Shown one piece after another: positions 41,399 to 49,250 of a stretch of DNA of 49,250 nt (the first letter of the stretch is position 1; every line of letters starts with the position of its first letter). The stretch spans positions 1 through 49,250 of the forward strand of contig DAOORA010000029.1 in assembly GCA_035389045.1 (NCBI GenBank). Reading direction: 5' to 3'. The stretch comes from Bacteroidales bacterium. Its GTDB lineage: Bacteria; Bacteroidota; Bacteroidia; Bacteroidales; CAIWKO01. The position numbers and the translations under genes are program-made. Under the pieces are notes generated by a model that saw only the letters and a list, made by a program, of their open reading frames with translations, did not search any database and was not told the DNA's origin.

Positions 41399-41474
41399 CA
41401 CGTGATATTTTTTACAAAATTACTTAATTTTATCAATATATATAAAGAATAAACTCAAAATACCGGTATCTGTT

Positions 41475-42164
41475 GTGTCATACTTTTATGATTTTATATC
41501 GTTGTTTATTCCGCGTGTTTGTTACTCATGCGGTAATACGCTGTTCAGGCACGAAGAGGTTCTTTGCAGCTATTGTCTTCACCAGCTTCCGAAAACAAAT
41601 TATCATGCCGAAGAAAACAACCCTGTTTGTATGATTTTCTGGGGAAGGGTAACTATAAACCACGCATCCTCGATGTATTATTTTGCCAAAGGCGGCAAGG
41701 TTCAGCATTTGCTTCACCAGTTAAAATATAAAGGGATAAAAGAAATCGGCATATATACCGGTAAGTTATACGGTGTAACCCTGAAAAAATCGCCTTTTTA
41801 TACCGATGTCGATGTGATAATTCCCGTTCCTCTTCATCCCAAAAAACAAAGGAAAAGAGGTTATAATCAGAGTGAGATGTTTGCGTGCGGTCTGGCGGAA
41901 GCATTTTCGAAGCCTTATGATATCAAAACCCTTGTGCGCACGTATGCTTCGGAAACGCAGACAAAAAAATCAAGGTTCCGGCGTTGGGAAAATGTAAAAG
42001 AGATTTTTGCATTAAAAGACCATCAGCATATGATCAACAAGCATATACTGCTGGTTGATGATGTGGTGACTACGGGCGCCACCCTCGAAGCCTGTGCAAA
42101 CATGCTGCTTCAGATTCCCGGGGTAAAGGTAAGTATTGCCACTATTGCCTGTGCGATCCGGTAG
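41475..42164 (+). CDS. comF: ComF family protein (zinc ribbon plus PRTase domain)
   Basis: CxxC...CxxC, PVPLH, RGYNQS and LLVDDVVTTGATL motifs; GTG start. Confidence 0.93.
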   Translation: MSYFYDFISLFIPRVCYSCGNTLFRHEEVLCSYCLHQLPKTNYHAEENNPVCMIFWGRVTINHASSMYYFAKGGKVQHLLHQLKYKGIKEIGIYTGKLYGVTLKKSPFYTDVDVIIPVPLHPKKQRKRGYNQSEMFACGLAEAFSKPYDIKTLVRTYASETQTKKSRFRRWENVKEIFALKDHQHMINKHILLVDDVVTTGATLEACANMLLQIPGVKVSIATIACAIR

Positions 42165-42201
42165 CGTTTTCGAGTTACCGGTAGTGCGGCTCAAGGCACT
42201 C

Positions 42202-42328
42202 GTCTAACGACAAGCATATCACAAAGCTAACTGCTTTTTGGACATTTGCAAAATGAAAATAACTTTCGCGAAGCGACCTTGAATTTGCAAATACTTTGAT
42301 GTCCACACGCATTACTGGGGGGTTGTGC
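42202..42328 (-). repeat. Degenerate attC-like site F
   Basis: Coding strand: TAG stop overlapping GCACAAC ... GTTAGAC; 119 bp AAC-to-GTT; inner stem TGGACAT/ATGTCCA and TTGCAAA/TTTGCAA; outer arms do not pair. Confidence 0.5.
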
Positions 42329-42620
42329 TATGTAACTGTTTTATTTGTAAATTCATACAATTTGTCAGTGTTTATTCCTTTTTCTGTTACCTTTTGCCAA
42401 TTTATTTTTGTCAGTGATTTTAACCTTAAAGTGTCTTGAAAGAGTTTAAACGCTTTTTTTGACAATTACTATTGTAGTATTCTTCAATAGTGCTTGATAA
42501 CTCTGCAATCATCTCGCACGTAAAATCATTTTCCTCAGTTTCGAGATTCATAGTTATATTATAAAACACAAAATCAAATTGATGCGATGAGTCTATCTGT
42601 TCGAAAATAACACCTTGGTC
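42328..42620 (-). pseudogene. Decayed cassette ORF remnant
   Basis: DQGVIFEQ...MNLETEENDFTCEMIAEL... shifts frame near the T7 tract (42454-42460) into KKAFKLFQ...NKTVT*, whose TAG overlaps site F; upstream in-frame stops. Confidence 0.5.
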
Positions 42621-42693
42621 TTATAATTTTATTTTTCGTAATTATTAATAGAATATACAGATTCTTCTTGGCATGAACATTCAATTTATATTC

Positions 42694-43020
42694 AACCAGA
42701 TTCAACTGCTTATTTAATAGGAATAATAGGTTAATATTAAGAAAATCTCCGCGCCTTTTGGTCCAAATAATATCACCCTGCTGTCTCACGAACAAATCAA
42801 TTACTTATGGGCACCTCTAAAAACTTCAAATTTCTTCGTTCATCTTCGTTCTTCAAGTCCTCATGTACGCTCAGTACACTGCGGTTTTCAGAACTTCGAC
42901 TGCCTCGAACTTTTTTGTTTTTAGAGGCGCCCGATCAAGGTTATTAGAGATGCCCTTATTCTAACATTTCCAAACCCACAAAACTCCGCATTAAATAAGC
43001 TTGCAGTTATGCACTGCAAA
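42694..43020 (-). repeat. attC-like site E interrupted by a MITE
   Basis: GTTATGCAC at 43006 just after the FISUMP stop; arms GCTTATTTAAT (42708-42718) and ATTAAATAAGC (42990-43000); about 164 bp once the insertion is removed. Confidence 0.55.
42809..42955. mobile_element. MITE-like non-autonomous element (147 bp)
   Basis: Left IR GGGCACCTCTAAAAAC; right IRs GTTTTTAGAGGCGCCC (42917-42932, 15/16) and GTTATTAGAGATGCCC (42940-42955, 14/16); TTAT direct repeat on both flanks. Confidence 0.8.
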
Positions 43021-43024
43021 TAAA

Positions 43025-43981
43025 TTAGTTCTTTATCAACTTTTGCTGATATCTCTCTTCTTCTTCAGACAATCTAATTAGATAAATTCCTGATGTCAGG
43101 GAACTAATATCTATCCCGTTTGATCCACTTGTCAAATCGCATTGTAAAACACAATCTCCTATAATGTTATACACTTGCATTTTTAAATCTTTTCTGTCGC
43201 CACAGTCAATAATTATTTTATCAATTGCTGGATTTGGATAAATTTGAATTTGTTTATCAATACTGTTCTCATTAATTTGAGTAGCCAAAATATCCATAAT
43301 GCACCTAACTGAAAAACCGGAAGCCTTCTCGTAACTGCCTCGGTTTATCTGAGATTTACTAGGATCCAGTGTGCGTTCCCATACTTGATTACCAGCACTA
43401 CACGCTGTACCTGTCCACCAGTCACCTTGGTCACAAATAGCGTAGAATGTACCATTATTATAGTAACGCCAACCGCCGGGAAGAGCAGTAAAACCACTGC
43501 TATTGGTTGCCCCCGTGTTTAAACTATTCCAATGTGTCGTTCCTACTTCTTTTAATTTATTGCCAATATCTGTACCTGCCCAACCTATGATAGTGGTATC
43601 AATGGTGTTATCCAAATATTTTTCCATAATATTCCATTCTCCATCACTGGGAACATGCCAGCCTGTTGGACATATATTATTGGCCTCGGTGGCAGCATAC
43701 CAATTGTATAAAGCACCATAAATAGGTGCATAAGTACTGGAATCATTATCATAATAACATCTTCCACCAGTATTAAGACTGATCCATGTTGCGTTAGATG
43801 TAATATTTGGAATAGTAGTTCCATCTAAATAATGTGTAACTTTCAAATTTTCTTTCATCCAAACCTGTGTTCCAATAGTAAGAGTATTATAAACATTCCC
43901 GTCGATGTCTGTTACTGTTTGTGCTTGATTCTTAAATGTTAAAAATGCGAGTCCGGCAAATAGTAAAATTGCGTGTTTCAT
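43025..43981 (-). CDS. FISUMP (Fibrobacter succinogenes major paralogous) domain protein with T9SS sorting domain
   Basis: DIDGNVY, QVWMKENL, YGALYNWYA, CPTGWHVPS, GFTALPGG and GFSVRCI motifs; C-terminal IYPNPA...GIYLIRL...KLIKN. Confidence 0.92.
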   Translation of the reverse strand: MKHAILLFAGLAFLTFKNQAQTVTDIDGNVYNTLTIGTQVWMKENLKVTHYLDGTTIPNITSNATWISLNTGGRCYYDNDSSTYAPIYGALYNWYAATEANNICPTGWHVPSDGEWNIMEKYLDNTIDTTIIGWAGTDIGNKLKEVGTTHWNSLNTGATNSSGFTALPGGWRYYNNGTFYAICDQGDWWTGTACSAGNQVWERTLDPSKSQINRGSYEKASGFSVRCIMDILATQINENSIDKQIQIYPNPAIDKIIIDCGDRKDLKMQVYNIIGDCVLQCDLTSGSNGIDISSLTSGIYLIRLSEEEERYQQKLIKN

Positions 43982-44150
43982 ATTTAAAAAATTTGTGTGT
44001 AAAATTGAATTAGTGATTGACTACTTTGGCTTTATGTTAAAAAAGTGTCAAAAATATTTTATTTATTCTTGGTTGGTATGGCCTTGTGGATTTATGGAGA
44101 TTTCATAATGTCTTGTTTCGTTAGTTGTTAATAATCAAGGTTTTTATTAG

Positions 44151-44292
44151 GTACGACGATCCCGTGGCTGCTTTTCGCCCCGCAATTTAGTAACTTTCTT
44201 GTCAAAATAAACCATAATTTTCAAATTTTCACAATCCTGTCAACCGTGCTATGCCTGCGGGGTGAAAGCAGACACAAGTTATGCAACGTTAA
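44151..44292 (-). repeat. attC-like site D (family 1), distal GTT changed to GTC
   Basis: Plus strand GAC(44155-57)...GTGGCTGCTTTTCGCCCCGCA...TGCGGGGTGAAAGCAGACAC..GTT(44278-80); 126 bp. Confidence 0.8.
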
Positions 44293-44328
44293 TTTTGTTT
44301 TTTTTAATCATGTCGTGTCAGAGTGAAA

Positions 44329-45186
44329 TTAATTCTTGACGACTATTGCTTTTCTAAAATATGTATTATCATTAGTTTTCAGACGATAAATATAAAACCC
44401 ATTTGCACAGTTTTCTGAAGAAAATTCAATAATATATTCCTTGTCTTTATGAACTTCATTGTCAAATATTCTTTTAATGTGTCTGCCATTAATATCAAAT
44501 ATGTCAAGTTTTGCATTAGTATTATAAGGTACGGAAAAAGTGAAACTTGTCTTATCGTTAAAAGGATTAGGAATATTTTTTAATGAAACATTTTTATTTA
44601 TTTGACTAATATTTTCTTCATCAATAGTCACAGGAGTGCAATCCAGAGTTCCAAAACCATTGTTTTGGGTAAGAGTAACTGTACAGACATCAGGGGTGGT
44701 TCTTGATATCATCATAATATAATATTGACCTGTTATTCCATTTGGGATATAACAAAATTCACCAAATGAAGCACTACTACTGCAATCGATCATGTTCAGT
44801 GTTGGATACCATACACTTGGACCCGGAGAGCCATGAGTTGGCGTATAAGTGCCTGCTGTAAGTTGTGCAACACATGGTGTTGTAAGTGAGGTAAAAGGAC
44901 CCCAGCAAACAAAATTAAGATTATACGATGGTGTGCATGTTATTTCAAGAGCAAGGTCCCCTGAATTAAGAATCTTCAAATAAAACCATGAAAAATTAGG
45001 TTGGGGTCCATACAGACAACCATAATTTGGGCCAATTTCTGAACTGTCAGCAAGAGATCCAGCACTTAAATTAACAGGCTGTCCAGTACAAATTAATGTT
45101 GCACTGTCGCATGAAAAGCCCTGTGATTTACAAATGATCGATATTAGGAAAAACACCAGTCCGAAAAAGTAAAATTTTGTCTTCAT
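44329..45186 (-). CDS. Cys-containing secreted protein with T9SS sorting domain (cassette gene)
   Basis: Signal peptide; GPNYGCL...WFY...CWGPF...GQYYIMMI domain; C-terminal PNPFN...GFYIYRL...IVVKN. Confidence 0.85.
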   Translation of the reverse strand: MKTKFYFFGLVFFLISIICKSQGFSCDSATLICTGQPVNLSAGSLADSSEIGPNYGCLYGPQPNFSWFYLKILNSGDLALEITCTPSYNLNFVCWGPFTSLTTPCVAQLTAGTYTPTHGSPGPSVWYPTLNMIDCSSSASFGEFCYIPNGITGQYYIMMISRTTPDVCTVTLTQNNGFGTLDCTPVTIDEENISQINKNVSLKNIPNPFNDKTSFTFSVPYNTNAKLDIFDINGRHIKRIFDNEVHKDKEYIIEFSSENCANGFYIYRLKTNDNTYFRKAIVVKN

Positions 45187-45197
45187 GGTTTTATTTT

Positions 45198-45349
45198 TTA
45201 ATGTTGCATAACGACGGTCGAGGCTTGCTATTCGGCGGGGCGAATCGAAGCCGTTTCCTGTCCAAATACGCTGAGGCTTGATAAAAGAACTGCACTGTCC
45301 TATAAACCGTCTGCCCCGCTGGTAGCAAGCCTTTGTTGTATGCTGGCAA
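45198..45349 (-). repeat. attC-like site C (family 2)
   Basis: Plus strand AAC(45210-12)...AGGCTTGCTATTCGGCGGGGC...GCCCCGCTGGTAGCAAGCCT..GTT(45335-37); 128 bp. Confidence 0.85.
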
Positions 45350-45363
45350 TTTGTTCAATAGCA

Positions 45364-47064
45364 TTAATTTACCCTTTCAAATATTATATTCTTTGCTCTT
45401 GGATTATTTATTACAAGGCTTTTAATTGCTCCGTTTTCTTCTAAAAAGGAAATTGATTGTATTAAACCTAAATTGCTTTTAAATGTCAGGTTTTCTGAGT
45501 GTTCAAGAATTACTTCATTCGGAAAGGTGGAACTTTGAATTATCAATTTATCGTTTTCATATTTAATATCATATTTAATATCAAGCTCCTTAGAATAGAA
45601 AGTACCTATTAACTTGTCGTAATTAATATTTGTTTCTTTTTTGTTTTCTTCAACTTTTAAAGCTAGGTAACTATTTCCATTTTGTTCAAGCGTATGGCTG
45701 TTTACCTTTCCATTTCTTAAATGAAATACGAATTCAGCTTTAGCTTCTTTTACAAAATATACTGAATCTGATTTGGCATATAATTTATAGTTCTTGTTAT
45801 ACATGTTTAAAAAATACTCATCACCTTCTTTGAAAAAAGTCAGATAGCAATCTTTGTCGTCAACCTGTTGGTATTTACCTGCACAAAAAGCGAAAAAATC
45901 ATCGTTTAATTCTTGCTCAGTTGACACACTTTCTTTTGTTTTCTTCTCTGTCTTATCGCCAAATAAAATATCAGCAATGGCATTTAATATTTTTTTAGGG
46001 TCAAGTGTTCCATTATTACTTAAAATAACCACACCAACACTTTCTTCAGGGAAATAAACTATACCTGAGCGGTAACCGCCCCAAGAACCATCATGATAAT
46101 AAGCTTTCTTGTCTTTTATTTCAGTTATGTATAATCCATAACCATAATCTATGGTTTTGCTATTGTTTAAATTACCTTTTGTGGTTATTTTATTAAAAGC
46201 ATCATTGCCACCCAATATCTTACTATTAAAGTTTGTCAACCATTTTGACATATCAGCAGTGCTGCTCATTAGCGAACTAGAACCAAAAGCACTGAGATTA
46301 TTAGAAAAAGAAAGGTAATCTTTTCCATTATAAACATAAGAATTAGCTATTACGTTTTCTTCTGATTTGTTACTTTCAACAAAGTAAGTATTCTCCATTC
46401 CTATAGGAGCAAATATATTTTCATGTATCCAACTTTTAAATGTTGTATCTGTAACGGCTTCAACTATTTTTGCCAAAAGATTGTAATTTGAATTACTATA
46501 TAAAAATTCAGTGCCCGGAGTAAAGTTTAAACTTTCTTGTTTCTTAAGGATTTCATAAATGTCATTTAATGAAAGTGGCTCTTCGGGCTGCCATCCTTTC
46601 AACGCAAATAGCGTTGGCCAATCTCTAATACCGGAGGTGTGATGAACAAGTTGATATATTGTAATGTCACTCATAGCCTCCGATAAATCAGGTAGATATT
46701 TAATGATTTTATCATTAATATTGATTTTACCTTTTTCTTCTAAAAGAGCTATTGCCATTCCTGTAAATTGTTTGCTATCAGAGGCTATATCAAAAATCGT
46801 ATTTTCGGTAATTGGCGTTTTTTTGTCTAAATCAGCAGAACCGAAATTCCCTTTATATAAGATAGAATTCTTCTTTGTAATTATTACCGACAATCCAGGC
46901 TTATTTTTTCCATTTAAATCTCCTGTTTTATTTAAAACTTGCTGTTCAAAGTACGAATCTAATTGTGGTTTCAACGCCCTTTCCTGTACTGTCTTGCACT
47001 GGATAAGACTAATAATTACCATTAATCCTAATCCAAGTGTTCCAATTTTTTTCTTTTTCAACAT
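45364..47064 (-). CDS. Serine hydrolase, beta-lactamase/PBP (AmpC-like) family, possible lipoprotein (cassette gene)
   Basis: SxxK in IASDSKQF, HTSGI, PGTEFLYSNSNY and HDGSWGGY motifs; LIQC possible lipobox. Confidence 0.9.
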   Translation of the reverse strand: MLKKKKIGTLGLGLMVIISLIQCKTVQERALKPQLDSYFEQQVLNKTGDLNGKNKPGLSVIITKKNSILYKGNFGSADLDKKTPITENTIFDIASDSKQFTGMAIALLEEKGKININDKIIKYLPDLSEAMSDITIYQLVHHTSGIRDWPTLFALKGWQPEEPLSLNDIYEILKKQESLNFTPGTEFLYSNSNYNLLAKIVEAVTDTTFKSWIHENIFAPIGMENTYFVESNKSEENVIANSYVYNGKDYLSFSNNLSAFGSSSLMSSTADMSKWLTNFNSKILGGNDAFNKITTKGNLNNSKTIDYGYGLYITEIKDKKAYYHDGSWGGYRSGIVYFPEESVGVVILSNNGTLDPKKILNAIADILFGDKTEKKTKESVSTEQELNDDFFAFCAGKYQQVDDKDCYLTFFKEGDEYFLNMYNKNYKLYAKSDSVYFVKEAKAEFVFHLRNGKVNSHTLEQNGNSYLALKVEENKKETNINYDKLIGTFYSKELDIKYDIKYENDKLIIQSSTFPNEVILEHSENLTFKSNLGLIQSISFLEENGAIKSLVINNPRAKNIIFERVN

Positions 47065-47106
47065 GCTCTGTTAATGTTAAATTTAGAAATGTGCGTTCTG
47101 TTTCTT

Positions 47107-47255
47107 TTGCTTGCATACAACGCCGTGTGGCTGCTTTTGAGCCGCATTTTATTTTCCGTTCCTGTCAAAATTCCCATAGCTTTCAAATTTGTCCCAAACT
47201 GTCAAACTGTCCCGCACTGCGGCTTTAAAGCAGACACGAGTTACCAGCAGGTTTA
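47107..47255 (-). repeat. attC-like site B (family 1)
   Basis: Plus strand AAC(47119-21)...GTGGCTGCTTTTGAGCCGCA...TGCGGCTTTAAAGCAGACAC..GTT(47240-42); 124 bp. Confidence 0.85.
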
Positions 47256-47258
47256 TTG

Positions 47259-48857
47259 TTAATCTTCAAATCCAATTTTCAATATTATTTCTTCACACGC
47301 CTTTGTAATTTTTGCAGTCCTGACATTTTCTGTCGGATAAATTAAATAGCCTGAACTTTGTACAGCTTTGAAATTATATGTCCCGATATTCATATTATAA
47401 GATTGTGACGCTTTGCCAGGTATTGTTTCAATAAACTTACTTCCTTGATATAAGTTGTATGGATTGGAAGATTTATTTTGAAATGTAATGATGCCTTGAT
47501 TCTTCTTCTCACAGTCTGGAGTAAGCAGTTCTTTTAAAACATTTTCAAAAACAGCATCAACCTTGTCTAGTTCGGATTTTATTTTCTTATCAAGATTATA
47601 GTTCTTTATGTCGGCAAGATAATAATTGTTATTACAACAGTTCGAATCACTTGGACAAAAGATGCCTGAACAATTATTGTACTTGACTTCCAAATCCGTT
47701 AAGTACTTTTCGGCTACACTGTTTAATGAAATAAAAACTGGTAAGACCTCATCATATTTGTTCATAATTTTTGTTATATAATTTTGAGGCATCTCAAATT
47801 CATTTAGATTTTGTTTCAATTGTTCTTTACCTGAACCTGTAACTAATTCGTCAAGGAGTGTTTTTGCTGAATATACCTTGATTACTGCTTCATTTATTTT
47901 TGTTAATTGATTTTGTTTCTTGTCGTCCCAATATATTCCTTCAATGCCATATAACGTAAAAGGTGAGTAATAATATTGAGTAATGATGCTTTGATTTGGG
48001 TCGGAAATATTTTTTATTGCACTTTCAATTATTGAAGCAATTGCAACAGCTTTATCCTGTGAATCTCCATTTAAAATGTCTTTTATTTGTCCTTGTATTA
48101 CGCTCTGTTCAATAGCTGGGCCATCAATTTCAACTGAAATTGAGAACTCATTTTGTTCTAATTGTCTATTGGTCCAATTTCCATTTACAATTTCAAAAGA
48201 ACCGGAACCTTTAAGAGGAATATCACCACCTGTCTGAACTGATGAATTTTCATTCTCATTGCTGCTATTCTTAGTTCCTGTCTTGGTTAATATTACAGAA
48301 ATACTACTCTCTTTGCGTATTCCACTAATATAATGAGTGCCATAAAAACTAATAAAATCCTGAAACCTTTTCTGAGTTATAAGCGATTTTGCTTCGGTTA
48401 TTAATTGAGGGTCTGTCTGAAATGAATAAACACCAAAGTCAACATTTGCATTAAATATTAGTCTTTCTTCATCCTTGATATTCTTGTTAGCATATTCTTC
48501 TAATTTTTGTCCGCCTAAGGTGAATAAATTAAGAAAACTGACTTTTCCTGATGCACCTCTTTTTTTAAAGTCATTATACTCAGAATTAGTTTTTGTATAA
48601 AACAAATGAATAGAAGTTTTCTTACCTGTCTGTTGCGGTGTGAGTTTATTCGGGTTTGATGTCTCTGAGGTAAAGCAAGATCTTGTTTGTTTATAAATAT
48701 CGTTTATGTGAAAACCTTTACCAATTTTAATTGGTGGCGCTAAATTGTCCTTGTTAAAATAATTTGCATCGAATACACTTGTGGATTGAGCATGTATGAA
48801 ACTAAATGCTGTCAGTGTCAAGATGAAAGTCAATGTCCTTTTAAGATAACTTTTCAT
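47259..48857 (-). CDS. Secreted protein with MACPF-like signature (cassette gene)
   Basis: True start ATG 48857 (MKSYLKRTLTFILTLTAFSFIHAQ signal); IGKGFHI near the N-terminus and FISFYGTHYISG; the track's longer N-terminus runs through site A. Confidence 0.6.
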   Translation of the reverse strand: MKSYLKRTLTFILTLTAFSFIHAQSTSVFDANYFNKDNLAPPIKIGKGFHINDIYKQTRSCFTSETSNPNKLTPQQTGKKTSIHLFYTKTNSEYNDFKKRGASGKVSFLNLFTLGGQKLEEYANKNIKDEERLIFNANVDFGVYSFQTDPQLITEAKSLITQKRFQDFISFYGTHYISGIRKESSISVILTKTGTKNSSNENENSSVQTGGDIPLKGSGSFEIVNGNWTNRQLEQNEFSISVEIDGPAIEQSVIQGQIKDILNGDSQDKAVAIASIIESAIKNISDPNQSIITQYYYSPFTLYGIEGIYWDDKKQNQLTKINEAVIKVYSAKTLLDELVTGSGKEQLKQNLNEFEMPQNYITKIMNKYDEVLPVFISLNSVAEKYLTDLEVKYNNCSGIFCPSDSNCCNNNYYLADIKNYNLDKKIKSELDKVDAVFENVLKELLTPDCEKKNQGIITFQNKSSNPYNLYQGSKFIETIPGKASQSYNMNIGTYNFKAVQSSGYLIYPTENVRTAKITKACEEIILKIGFED

Positions 48858-48886
48858 TTGTTTAGATTGTTTATGTTTTTTTCTTT

Positions 48887-49036
48887 TAAACTTGCTGGTA
48901 ACGGTTTGGCGGTTGCTGTTCGGTGGCGATTTCACCACTAAGGTTTCCACGAAGAACAAAGGTTTCAAAAAGCACTTCACTGTCATACGAAGCACTGTCC
49001 CGCCACTGACAGCAAACGCCTGTTACCGCCTGGTGT
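48887..49036 (-). repeat. attC-like site A (family 2)
   Basis: Plus strand AAC(48900-02)...GGCGGTTGCTGTTCGGTGGCG...CGCCACTGACAGCAAACGCC.GTT(49022-24); 125 bp. Confidence 0.85.
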
Positions 49037-49250
49037 TCTTTCATCTGTCTTTGTAAACCATTGTCAACATTGAGTTTCTCTGTCATTGTCATTTTACTTT
49101 CTTGTCTGTCTGTGTCGGCTCGTATGTTTGCGTTTTTTATTTTTCTTAAAGGGTCAGGAAATTTTTTTAAAACAATTTTTCTTTAGCGTTGGCTTGTAAG
49201 CCGCCGGCGAAATGCATCTTTCCCATCTGATCAAATAGATGCAACTTGCG

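Follow-up and report, generated by a model that had tools for sequence, protein, structure and literature searches.

Paired, cassette-specific ends in a probable integron-type gene-cassette array of a Bacteroidales bacterium

In classical integrons the choice of the recombining strand depends on extrahelical bases that are read by a helix specific to the integrase IntI, and Xer/dif sites consist of 11-bp arms around a central region of 6–8 bp. Here we compare with these and other described systems a set of genes, hairpin sites and paired gene-cassette ends that lies at one end of a Bacteroidales contig. The window, by which we mean the whole stretch of DNA that was analysed, comprises all 49,250 nucleotides of this contig (C29; GenBank DAOORA010000029.1), which belongs to a 96%-complete genome assembly (G000; GCA_035389045.1).

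Pairing between the ends of canonical integron cassettes extends past the 7-nt boxes of the attC recombination site, over 9–11 consecutive nucleotides in most cassettes according to the accessible part of Bouvier et al. (2009; PMC2727003). The accessible part of the IntegronFinder 2.0 report lists almost no integrons in Bacteroidetes. The arrays described from Bacteroidales under the name rAID-1 comprise a 5' XerD-like recombinase, co-oriented genes of low GC content and repetitive intergenic sequences; in the available portion of their description (Ross et al. 2019; bioRxiv 10.1101/471110) they are defined by a recombinase with >44% identity to BF9343_RS08045 and at least two co-directional downstream genes with a GC content of at most 41%. 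In a 2025 preprint on rAID (PMC12247911) the terms integron, hairpin and inverted repeat do not occur, and the way in which rAID arrays arise is described there as still under active study. Neither that preprint nor the available portion of Ross et al. describes hairpin folding, a crossover point or cassette-specific arms, and a literature search for interrupted or cassette-specific arms in Bacteroidales arrays returned none, with the proviso that Fig. S4 of Ross et al. may show intergenic motifs.

The region from position 49250 down to about 43000 is very probably an integron-type gene-cassette array, in which the terminal inverted repeats of each cassette represent the split outer arm (R''/R') of the cassette's own attC-like hairpin. 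The ORF list and a Pfam scan place four open reading frames (ORFs) here, all on the − strand and with GC contents of 30.5–36.4%, against 40.9% for the genome. Between the ORFs lie four homologous and co-oriented hairpin sites of 133–137 nt, each of which folds into a long interrupted inner stem with a loop of about 70 nt. In the alignment of these four sites, 7 of the 14 consensus stem pairs show compensatory changes. AAC is found at one end of all four sites and GTT at the other end of three, site 3 having GTC or GTA instead. No Rfam family matched at E ≤0.1 across 42000–49250, and a known RNA family was rejected on this ground.

Read on the − strand, the array enters the window with attC-like site 0 (48896..49028, 133 nt), which scored 115.6 bits with R1, a covariance model built from the window's own four sites, and is supported further by its fold, alignment and covariation. 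The cassette from which site 0 originates runs past the contig end, and the R' GTT of the site (48902-48900) opens the next cassette. This cassette 1 (47121..48901, 1781 bp, bounded by its cognate arms) carries ORF 47259-48857, which has a weak match to Pfam PF01823 (MACPF; 17.2 bits, under the cut-off of 21.5), together with site 1 (47112..47246, 135 nt; R1 116.3 bits, fold). Cassette 2 (45212..47120, 1909 bp) combines ORF 45364-47064, of serine-hydrolase/beta-lactamase fold (Pfam PF00144, 200.1 bits), with site 2 (45206..45341, 136 nt; R1 113.3 bits, fold). Cassette 3 (44157..45211, about 1055 bp) encodes a protein with a C-terminal sorting domain of the type IX secretion system (T9SS; ORF 44329-45186, Pfam PF18962, 36.1 bits) and contains site 3 (44148..44284, 137 nt; R1 126.8 bits, supported by alignment and by comparison with a second copy on contig C43). 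The R' triplet of site 3 is degenerate and can be read as GTC at 44157-44155 or as GTA at 44154-44152. Two conserved GACAG motifs (TGACAG..., TTTGACAGGAA-like) occur in the variable loops of all four sites and of related sites, for example at 47160-47215 and 44195-44250.

Beyond site 3 lies a worn last unit (43006..44156, − strand) whose ORF 43025-43981 has a Fib_succ_major and a T9SS sorting domain in the Pfam scan. In its start arm (GTCGTACCTAAT), mutation has turned GTT into GTC. Positions 43006-43020 resemble an end arm (reverse complement GTTATGCACTGCAAA) but are not complementary to this start arm; no complementary end arm was found for the unit, no R1-type hairpin lies 3' of it, and R1 has no further match in the window. 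An unrelated 26-nt inverted repeat is located at 42809-42834 and 42907-42932, before a ComF-like gene (41475-42164).

The ends of each of the three intact cassettes pair with one another. The end arm of the MACPF-like cassette (47240..47255, − strand, on the R'' side of site 1) matches the reverse complement of its start arm (48887..48902, − strand; top strand GTTACCAGCAAGTTTA) at 15/16 positions. The corresponding values are 13/15 for the serine hydrolase cassette (45335-45349 against the reverse complement of 47107-47121) and 14/15 for the T9SS cassette (44278-44292 against the reverse complement of 45198-45212). When every GTT-side arm of the four sites was compared with every AAC-side arm, the three cognate pairs in this 4 × 4 table matched at 15, 13 and 14 of 16 positions and the 13 non-cognate combinations at 3–10 of 16. 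The R' boxes GTTACCA, GTTGTAT and GTTATGC do not follow the 7-nt consensus RYYYAAC/GTTRRRY. All three pairs have a mismatch at position 11 from GTT, which places G against T on the + strand and A against C on the gene strand. In cassette 1, for instance, position 11 of the start arm is A (T at 48892 on the + strand), and G 47250 (+) lies opposite T 48892 as a G·T wobble that forms on the + (bottom) strand only. A preliminary description of this DNA had claimed that every intact cassette has a terminal inverted repeat of its own and that the repeats differ among cassettes, and both claims were confirmed, the ends pairing with their own partners and not with those of their neighbours. Its unit sizes of 1781 and 1909 bp were likewise recovered; the third, 1055 bp, is obtained if the degenerate R' of site 3 is read as GTC at 44157-44155. 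The paralogous T9SS copy on C43, counted from its coordinates, is 1055 bp long.

The same arm pattern recurs in related genomes. A search of this genome with R1 returned 12 further candidates at E ≤1, nine of them at E ≤0.01 and most of them solitary, and when 61 genomes from its genus, family and order were considered, itself included, 39 had R1 matches. From the window and nine related genomes we compiled 70 unique cassettes that have a site on either flank. Among their cognate pairs, 47% had a best inverted repeat with a score of at least 10; the share was 3% among 94 integrated sites and 0.5% among 4806 non-cognate pairs. Almost all strong repeats began at GTT.

Positions were then compared one by one in a set of 43 cassettes from ten Bacteroidales genomes, for which identical arm pairs were collapsed and at least 6/7 matches in the R box were required. 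The perfect run from GTT was 9 or 10 nt long in 40 of these and at least 11 in none; among 1774 non-cognate pairings, 0.6% had a run of at least 9, and 1.0% had an inverted repeat of 12 or more. Only GTTA is conserved in the family logo and positions 5–7 are mixed, and positions 5–9 are nevertheless paired in 41–43 of the 43 cassettes despite varied bases (e.g. T24 G11 C8 at position 5). The non-cognate match rate at positions 5–9 is 0.29–0.5, so that hybrid integrated sites share only about 4 bp. At position 11, every start arm (43/43) has A, and this A never has a matching partner (0/43). In 30 of the 43 cassettes, versus 6.5% of non-cognates, pairing resumes as a second helix of at least 4 bp (4–6 bp), sometimes after a 1-nt asymmetric loop, and the total number of paired bases has a median of 13 (interquartile range 12–14). 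The internal mismatches comprise 25 bottom-strand G·T wobbles, no top-strand wobble and 15 others.

Some arm types recur in different cassettes, such as GTTACCAGCAAG, which is found in the window and at locus L076. Others form related pairs (GTTACCAAC/GTTAGCAAC and GTTAGCGGT/GTTAGCAGT) in which the differences between the types are mirrored in the end arm of each. Additional genomes supplied another set of sites, most of them solitary, with A at position 11 in 17 of 23 start arms and in only 2 of 24 reverse-complemented end arms. Two solitary sites of the present genome (C46:6717-6849 and C16:36551-36686) have ATC...GAT ends instead of AAC...GTT, and each directly follows a terminator-like stem-loop.

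We used canonical integron cassettes as a control for the length of this complementarity. IntI1 of plasmid R100 led to 80 loci with class 1 integrases or integrases 68–77% identical, in which sites were located with our own hairpin finder and a loose RYYYAAC/GTTRRRY filter rather than with IntegronFinder. Removal of 10 cassettes for size (≥1600) and of 11 for an R box below 6/7 reduced 65 unique cassettes to 44, a sample of class 1 and related cassettes without Vibrio-type chromosomal arrays. Their cognate length had a median of 10.5 and a mode of 12. Fifteen cassettes had a length of exactly 12, while 19 reached 12 or more and 2 reached 14 or more; matches per position numbered 24–26 at positions 10–12 and then 8 at position 13. 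The aadA1 cassette of R100 scored 10/12. Past the GTTRRRY box, the control cassettes (loci L088–L167) have C at position 10 in 25/44 and A at position 11 in 26/44 start arms and 30/44 end arms.

These values do not bear out the statement in the preliminary description that the complementarity is about twice as long as in canonical cassettes. The accessible text of Bouvier et al. gives 9–11 nt and our control has its mode at 12, with 19 of 44 cassettes at 12 or more, so that in this comparison (n = 44) canonical cassette ends proved to be largely as long as those of the window. Long cognate ends are normal in integrons, and the total pairing in the window family (median 13) is close to that of the upper class of canonical cassettes.

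Copies of cassettes in other contexts indicate where the mobile unit begins. A copy of the T9SS cassette with about 98% identity is located at C43:91-1156 in the same genome (locus L066), before an 846-aa ORF. Its homology to the window starts exactly at CGTT, behind an unrelated hairpin, with nothing shared upstream of CGTT. It covers the ORF and the end arm, extends over 40 nt of the downstream hairpin and reappears for 26 nt in the 3' stem half, after which different DNA follows; the stem of the hairpin is preserved in both halves, and its loop has diverged strongly. For the cassette that follows the C43 site, a search for a partner end arm found none. Genomes G004 and G012 have in common a cassette with 99.2% identity over 618 bp; the shared block starts at GTT, ends where the cassette's own hairpin stem ends and has different neighbours on either side. 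In G018, a relative with a complete genome, the 3' spacer of one hairpin type stays the same before three to four different following arms. A crossover at the inner border of the 3' spacer, considered because the spacer differs in the two cross-context copies, was not adopted on this ground, as the spacer stays with the hairpin interior. Homologous cassettes elsewhere (the C43 and G004/G012 copies) do carry the same ends, and the homology breakpoints at CGTT, together with the cognate-arm controls, agree with the proposal of a crossover at or next to GTT. To judge from these alignments, the crossover is resolved only to within C-GTT-A.

Public data were searched as assembled contigs from activated-sludge, digester and lake samples. 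Contigs share hairpin interiors with the window and diverge directly after GTTA at 47243 (six contigs) and 49025 (three), or directly before TAAC at about 48891-48899 (four); loose contig ends thus cluster at the arm borders. Apparent joints between sites 1 and 3 are alignments of third hairpins and do not represent deletions. One contig (X3) joins a site-3-like hairpin (window 44164) to an arm that equals the T9SS start arm for 13 nt and is different thereafter. Judged by its sequence, it is another cassette and not a circle of the T9SS cassette, and unrelated cassettes can evidently share an arm type, because this arm matches for 13 nt and then diverges.

We built circle junctions in silico and folded them with DNA parameters. 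The bottom strand of the circle form had free energies of −30.8 kcal/mol for cassette 1 (MACPF-like), −33.5 for cassette 2 (serine hydrolase) and −28.6 for cassette 3 (T9SS), versus −18.7, −25.3 and −18.9 kcal/mol for the respective integrated sites, a gain of 8–12 kcal/mol. Replacing a cassette's own start arm with a foreign one gave −18.6 to −25.7 kcal/mol. At site 1, the R arm is unpaired in the integrated form and forms a 16-bp outer stem in the circle form. Among 30 cassettes with both anchors, the circle form was more stable in 20 and no different in 10, and the bottom strand was more stable than the top strand in 27. The 10 cassettes without a difference lie in tandem arrays of G018, for which identical neighbouring arms are the explanation we offer. 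The expectation that free circles carry a longer stem than integrated sites therefore proved correct; a longer stem in the circle is also a property of classical integrons. As the preliminary description suggested, such a stem may favour integration or reflect the way in which cassettes are created.

The best candidate for a recombinase in this genome (G000) is a 502-aa protein encoded at C124:247-1755 on the − strand. It scores 223.8 bits against NF040815 (cut-off 220) and 219.7 bits against TIGR02249 (cut-off 265), leaving positions 181–237 of the latter model unmatched. Its alignment with IntI1 (32% identity) shows gaps of 31 and 11 aa at the extra domain of IntI1, and the two proteins have a C-terminal SPLD motif in common. 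An N-terminal extension of about 225 aa contains no Pfam domain above cut-off; its only match, below threshold, is that of residues 153–185 to the HARP domain (21.7 bits, cut-off 25). The recombinase of these arrays matches structures of XerA and XerD about as well as that of IntI4. In G018, the C124 homologue immediately precedes the array and is co-oriented with it, and about 100 bp separate its stop codon from the start of the first cassette. Junctions resembling AC|GTTA also follow recombinase homologues in G031, G043 and G004. Contig C124 ends at ...AAACGTTAT, 246 nt past the recombinase gene, and a comparison of C124 with the window end found no overlap or shared sequence. These features suggest that an Xer-like recombinase, with an IntI-like C-terminus and without the IntI extra domain, carries out recombination.

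A tyrosine recombinase present in about 18 copies beside G018 hairpins was also considered as the array integrase and was rejected, being the first gene of a two-gene element of the IS91 family. This element encodes a 306-aa tyrosine recombinase and a 384-aa Y2 rolling-circle transposase (NF033538, 446 bits). Its roughly 18 near-identical copies in G018 include those at L060 2819-4893, 6889-8948, 10143-12214 and 16867-18941, with about 14 more elsewhere, and many copies begin about 90–310 bp from an attC-like hairpin, as if hairpins were their target.

We propose that the region is the promoter-distal part of a cassette array of an uncultured Bacteroidales bacterium, with genes and sites read on the − strand. 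A cassette consists of one ORF and then its own hairpin site of about 135 nt. This site begins with an AAC-side arm, a short unpaired spacer and a bulged inner stem of 20–25 bp with a loop of about 70 nt; another spacer then leads to the arm on the GTT side. On the gene strand, the unit begins with the TT of GTT, contains one ORF and ends with its own hairpin up to the next G, so that in the circle the start arm would complete the cassette's own hairpin. Crossover would take place within the conserved C-GTT-A, and integration would leave the GTT-side arm at the cassette start, about 1–2 kb from the rest of the site. The inverted repeats are cassette-specific because they would move with the cassette, and integrated sites are hybrids that share little beyond GTTA/TAAC. 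The arms follow a fixed design, with 9–10 perfect pairs, a position 11 that never pairs and then 4–6 more pairs, and the non-pair at position 11 is G·T or T·T on the strand opposite the genes. The data show this anatomy, the cassette specificity, the pattern across the family, the homology breakpoints and the computed gain in stability of the circle form. The + (bottom) strand is probably the one that is folded and recombined, and arm pairing appears to be kept by selection on the integration of circles.

The interrupted arm (9–10 bp, an invariant unpaired or wobble T at bottom-strand position 11 and a clamp of 4–6 bp) might also be a recognition feature of this recombinase family that shows where an 11-bp Xer-type binding arm ends on its outer side and supplies strand choice, a task for which classical integrons rely on the IntI-specific helix that this enzyme lacks. 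We regard this as speculative and rather unlikely. If it were true, these arrays would represent an independent or ancestral-like solution to single-strand cassette recombination, and arm conservation would be direct evidence that free circles are a selected substrate in nature.

The complementarity of the arms could instead be a relic of one ancestral hairpin at cassette formation, without present selection and with a pattern that has not decayed. Common descent would give recurring arm types in different cassettes, as seen for the type common to the window and L076. Public contigs share 12–13 nt of a start arm and then diverge, and no activity was seen in the assembled contigs. However, pairing at positions 5–9 is maintained across ten genomes despite the variety of bases, and related arm types differ by matched changes on both arms. 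That position 11 is never paired in 43 cassettes suggests constraint rather than decay, and pairing is lost in worn terminal units. We consider a relic improbable. Chance pairing within AT-rich intergenic sequence has still less support. Inverted repeats as long as these are by themselves unremarkable, because a generic inverted-repeat scan of 41400-49250 (7.9 kb, AT-rich) returned 169 pairs of at least 12 nt. Because such a blind scan yields many repeats, the signal lies in their anchoring on the AAC and GTT of four homologous hairpin sites. The repeats are so anchored and the pattern recurs in ten genomes, whereas only 1.0% of the 1774 non-cognate pairs reach 12 or more; these non-cognate controls refute chance, to which we assign a negligible probability.

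Alternatively, the cassettes might be small transposon-like units with terminal inverted repeats of their own, inserted between conserved 115-nt spacer repeats, in which case the hairpin interior would be target DNA. An inverted repeat does bracket each ORF, and hairpin interiors recur in contigs from other samples, where divergence sets in exactly outside GTTA/TAAC at either end. In addition, a 2-kb contig (X2, record 4) has cassette 2 behind a hairpin interior about 95% like that of site 1 with another AAC-side arm; X2 and the window differ at six positions, at least three of which are within site 1. Against such units, the two T9SS copies share the downstream stem halves (40 nt and 26 nt) and nothing upstream of CGTT, and the 99.2% identity of the G004/G012 cassette begins at GTT and takes in the cassette's own hairpin stem. 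The homology passes the end arm into the downstream hairpin instead of ending at both repeats. The shared downstream interior is informative because interiors differ among sites with compensatory changes. Furthermore, the ORF list and Pfam scan show no transposase among the array genes of the window. It is therefore very unlikely that the cassettes are transposon-like units.

Several observations nevertheless weigh against the interpretation of the region as an integron-type cassette array. No integron integrase scores above the TIGR02249 cut-off in this 96%-complete genome, and the C124 recombinase, encoded on a separate contig, is no more than a candidate for the enzyme of the C29 array. The R1 model was built on the window's sites, and the sample of related cassettes thus leans to similar sites; the R-box requirement of 6/7 removed 10 of 53 Bacteroidales cassettes. 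The spacer of 4–6 nt before GTT differs in both of the two cross-context copies, in which the rest of the hairpin is conserved (window 44158-44163 versus C43:1142-1146; L078 1895-1899 versus L081 2843-2847), and a strict G|TT crossover does not predict this difference. The X2 contig fits a related upstream cassette and fits equally an interior that lies outside the mobile unit. Among the assembled public contigs, no cassette-specific circle junction was identified and recombination was not observed.

If the cassette-array interpretation is correct, the paired arms would serve as a rule by which cassettes can be delimited exactly, and circle junctions predicted, in widespread Bacteroidales arrays. 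Matched changes maintain an arm pairing that is present in the excised circle alone, and this is an argument for circles being real and under selection. The fixed non-pair 11 nt from the crossover is a possible footprint edge or strand marker of a recombinase that lacks the IntI domain.

The array resembles the described systems to different degrees. Like rAID-1 loci, as far as these are characterized in the available portion of Ross et al., the G018 array has co-directional genes directly behind a recombinase, and the ORF GC contents of the window (30.5–36.4%) are within the rAID-1 limit, with recombinase (C124) and array (C29) on separate contigs in this genome. In contrast to rAID arrays, which consist of orphan immunity genes of about 100–300 codons, the window cassettes encode large secreted or T9SS-sorted proteins. 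The products (one weak MACPF match, one beta-lactamase fold and two T9SS-sorted proteins) are not those of an orphan immunity array, as judged from a Pfam scan only and without an immunity-gene search. With Xer/dif the array shares dimensions, in that a perfect helix ending at 9–10 bp and a fixed position 11 fit a recombinase arm of about 11 bp beside an unpaired central spacer. The difference is that a duplex arm arises here only after a single strand folds, its halves lying 1–2 kb apart in the chromosome.

The likeness to canonical integrons is closest. Each unit combines an ORF with an imperfect-palindrome site, the sites are co-oriented and end in AAC and GTT, their length of 133–137 nt is within the 57–142 nt range of the literature, and structure is conserved over sequence. 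As in canonical cassettes, crossover is at GTT, and the bases with which a cassette begins pair with those at its opposite end. The G·T wobbles here favour the strand opposite the genes, in line with the canonical bottom-strand model (Bouvier et al. 2009; PMC2727003). Unlike canonical sites, those of the window family do not keep RYYYAAC/GTTRRRY beyond GTTA, and their arm breaks at position 11 and resumes for 4–6 bp, whereas canonical pairing drops after position 12. The non-cognate match rate is 0.6–0.66 at positions 4, 5 and 7 of canonical hybrid sites, compared with 0.29–0.5 at positions 5–9 here. No IntI accompanies the array; the candidate recombinase lacks the extra domain and has an N-terminal extension of about 225 aa, and its homologue in G018 is located upstream in the orientation of the array. 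Pairing of cassette ends is itself a known property of integrons, and the patterned, interrupted arm without a classical integrase is a modest new variant of it.

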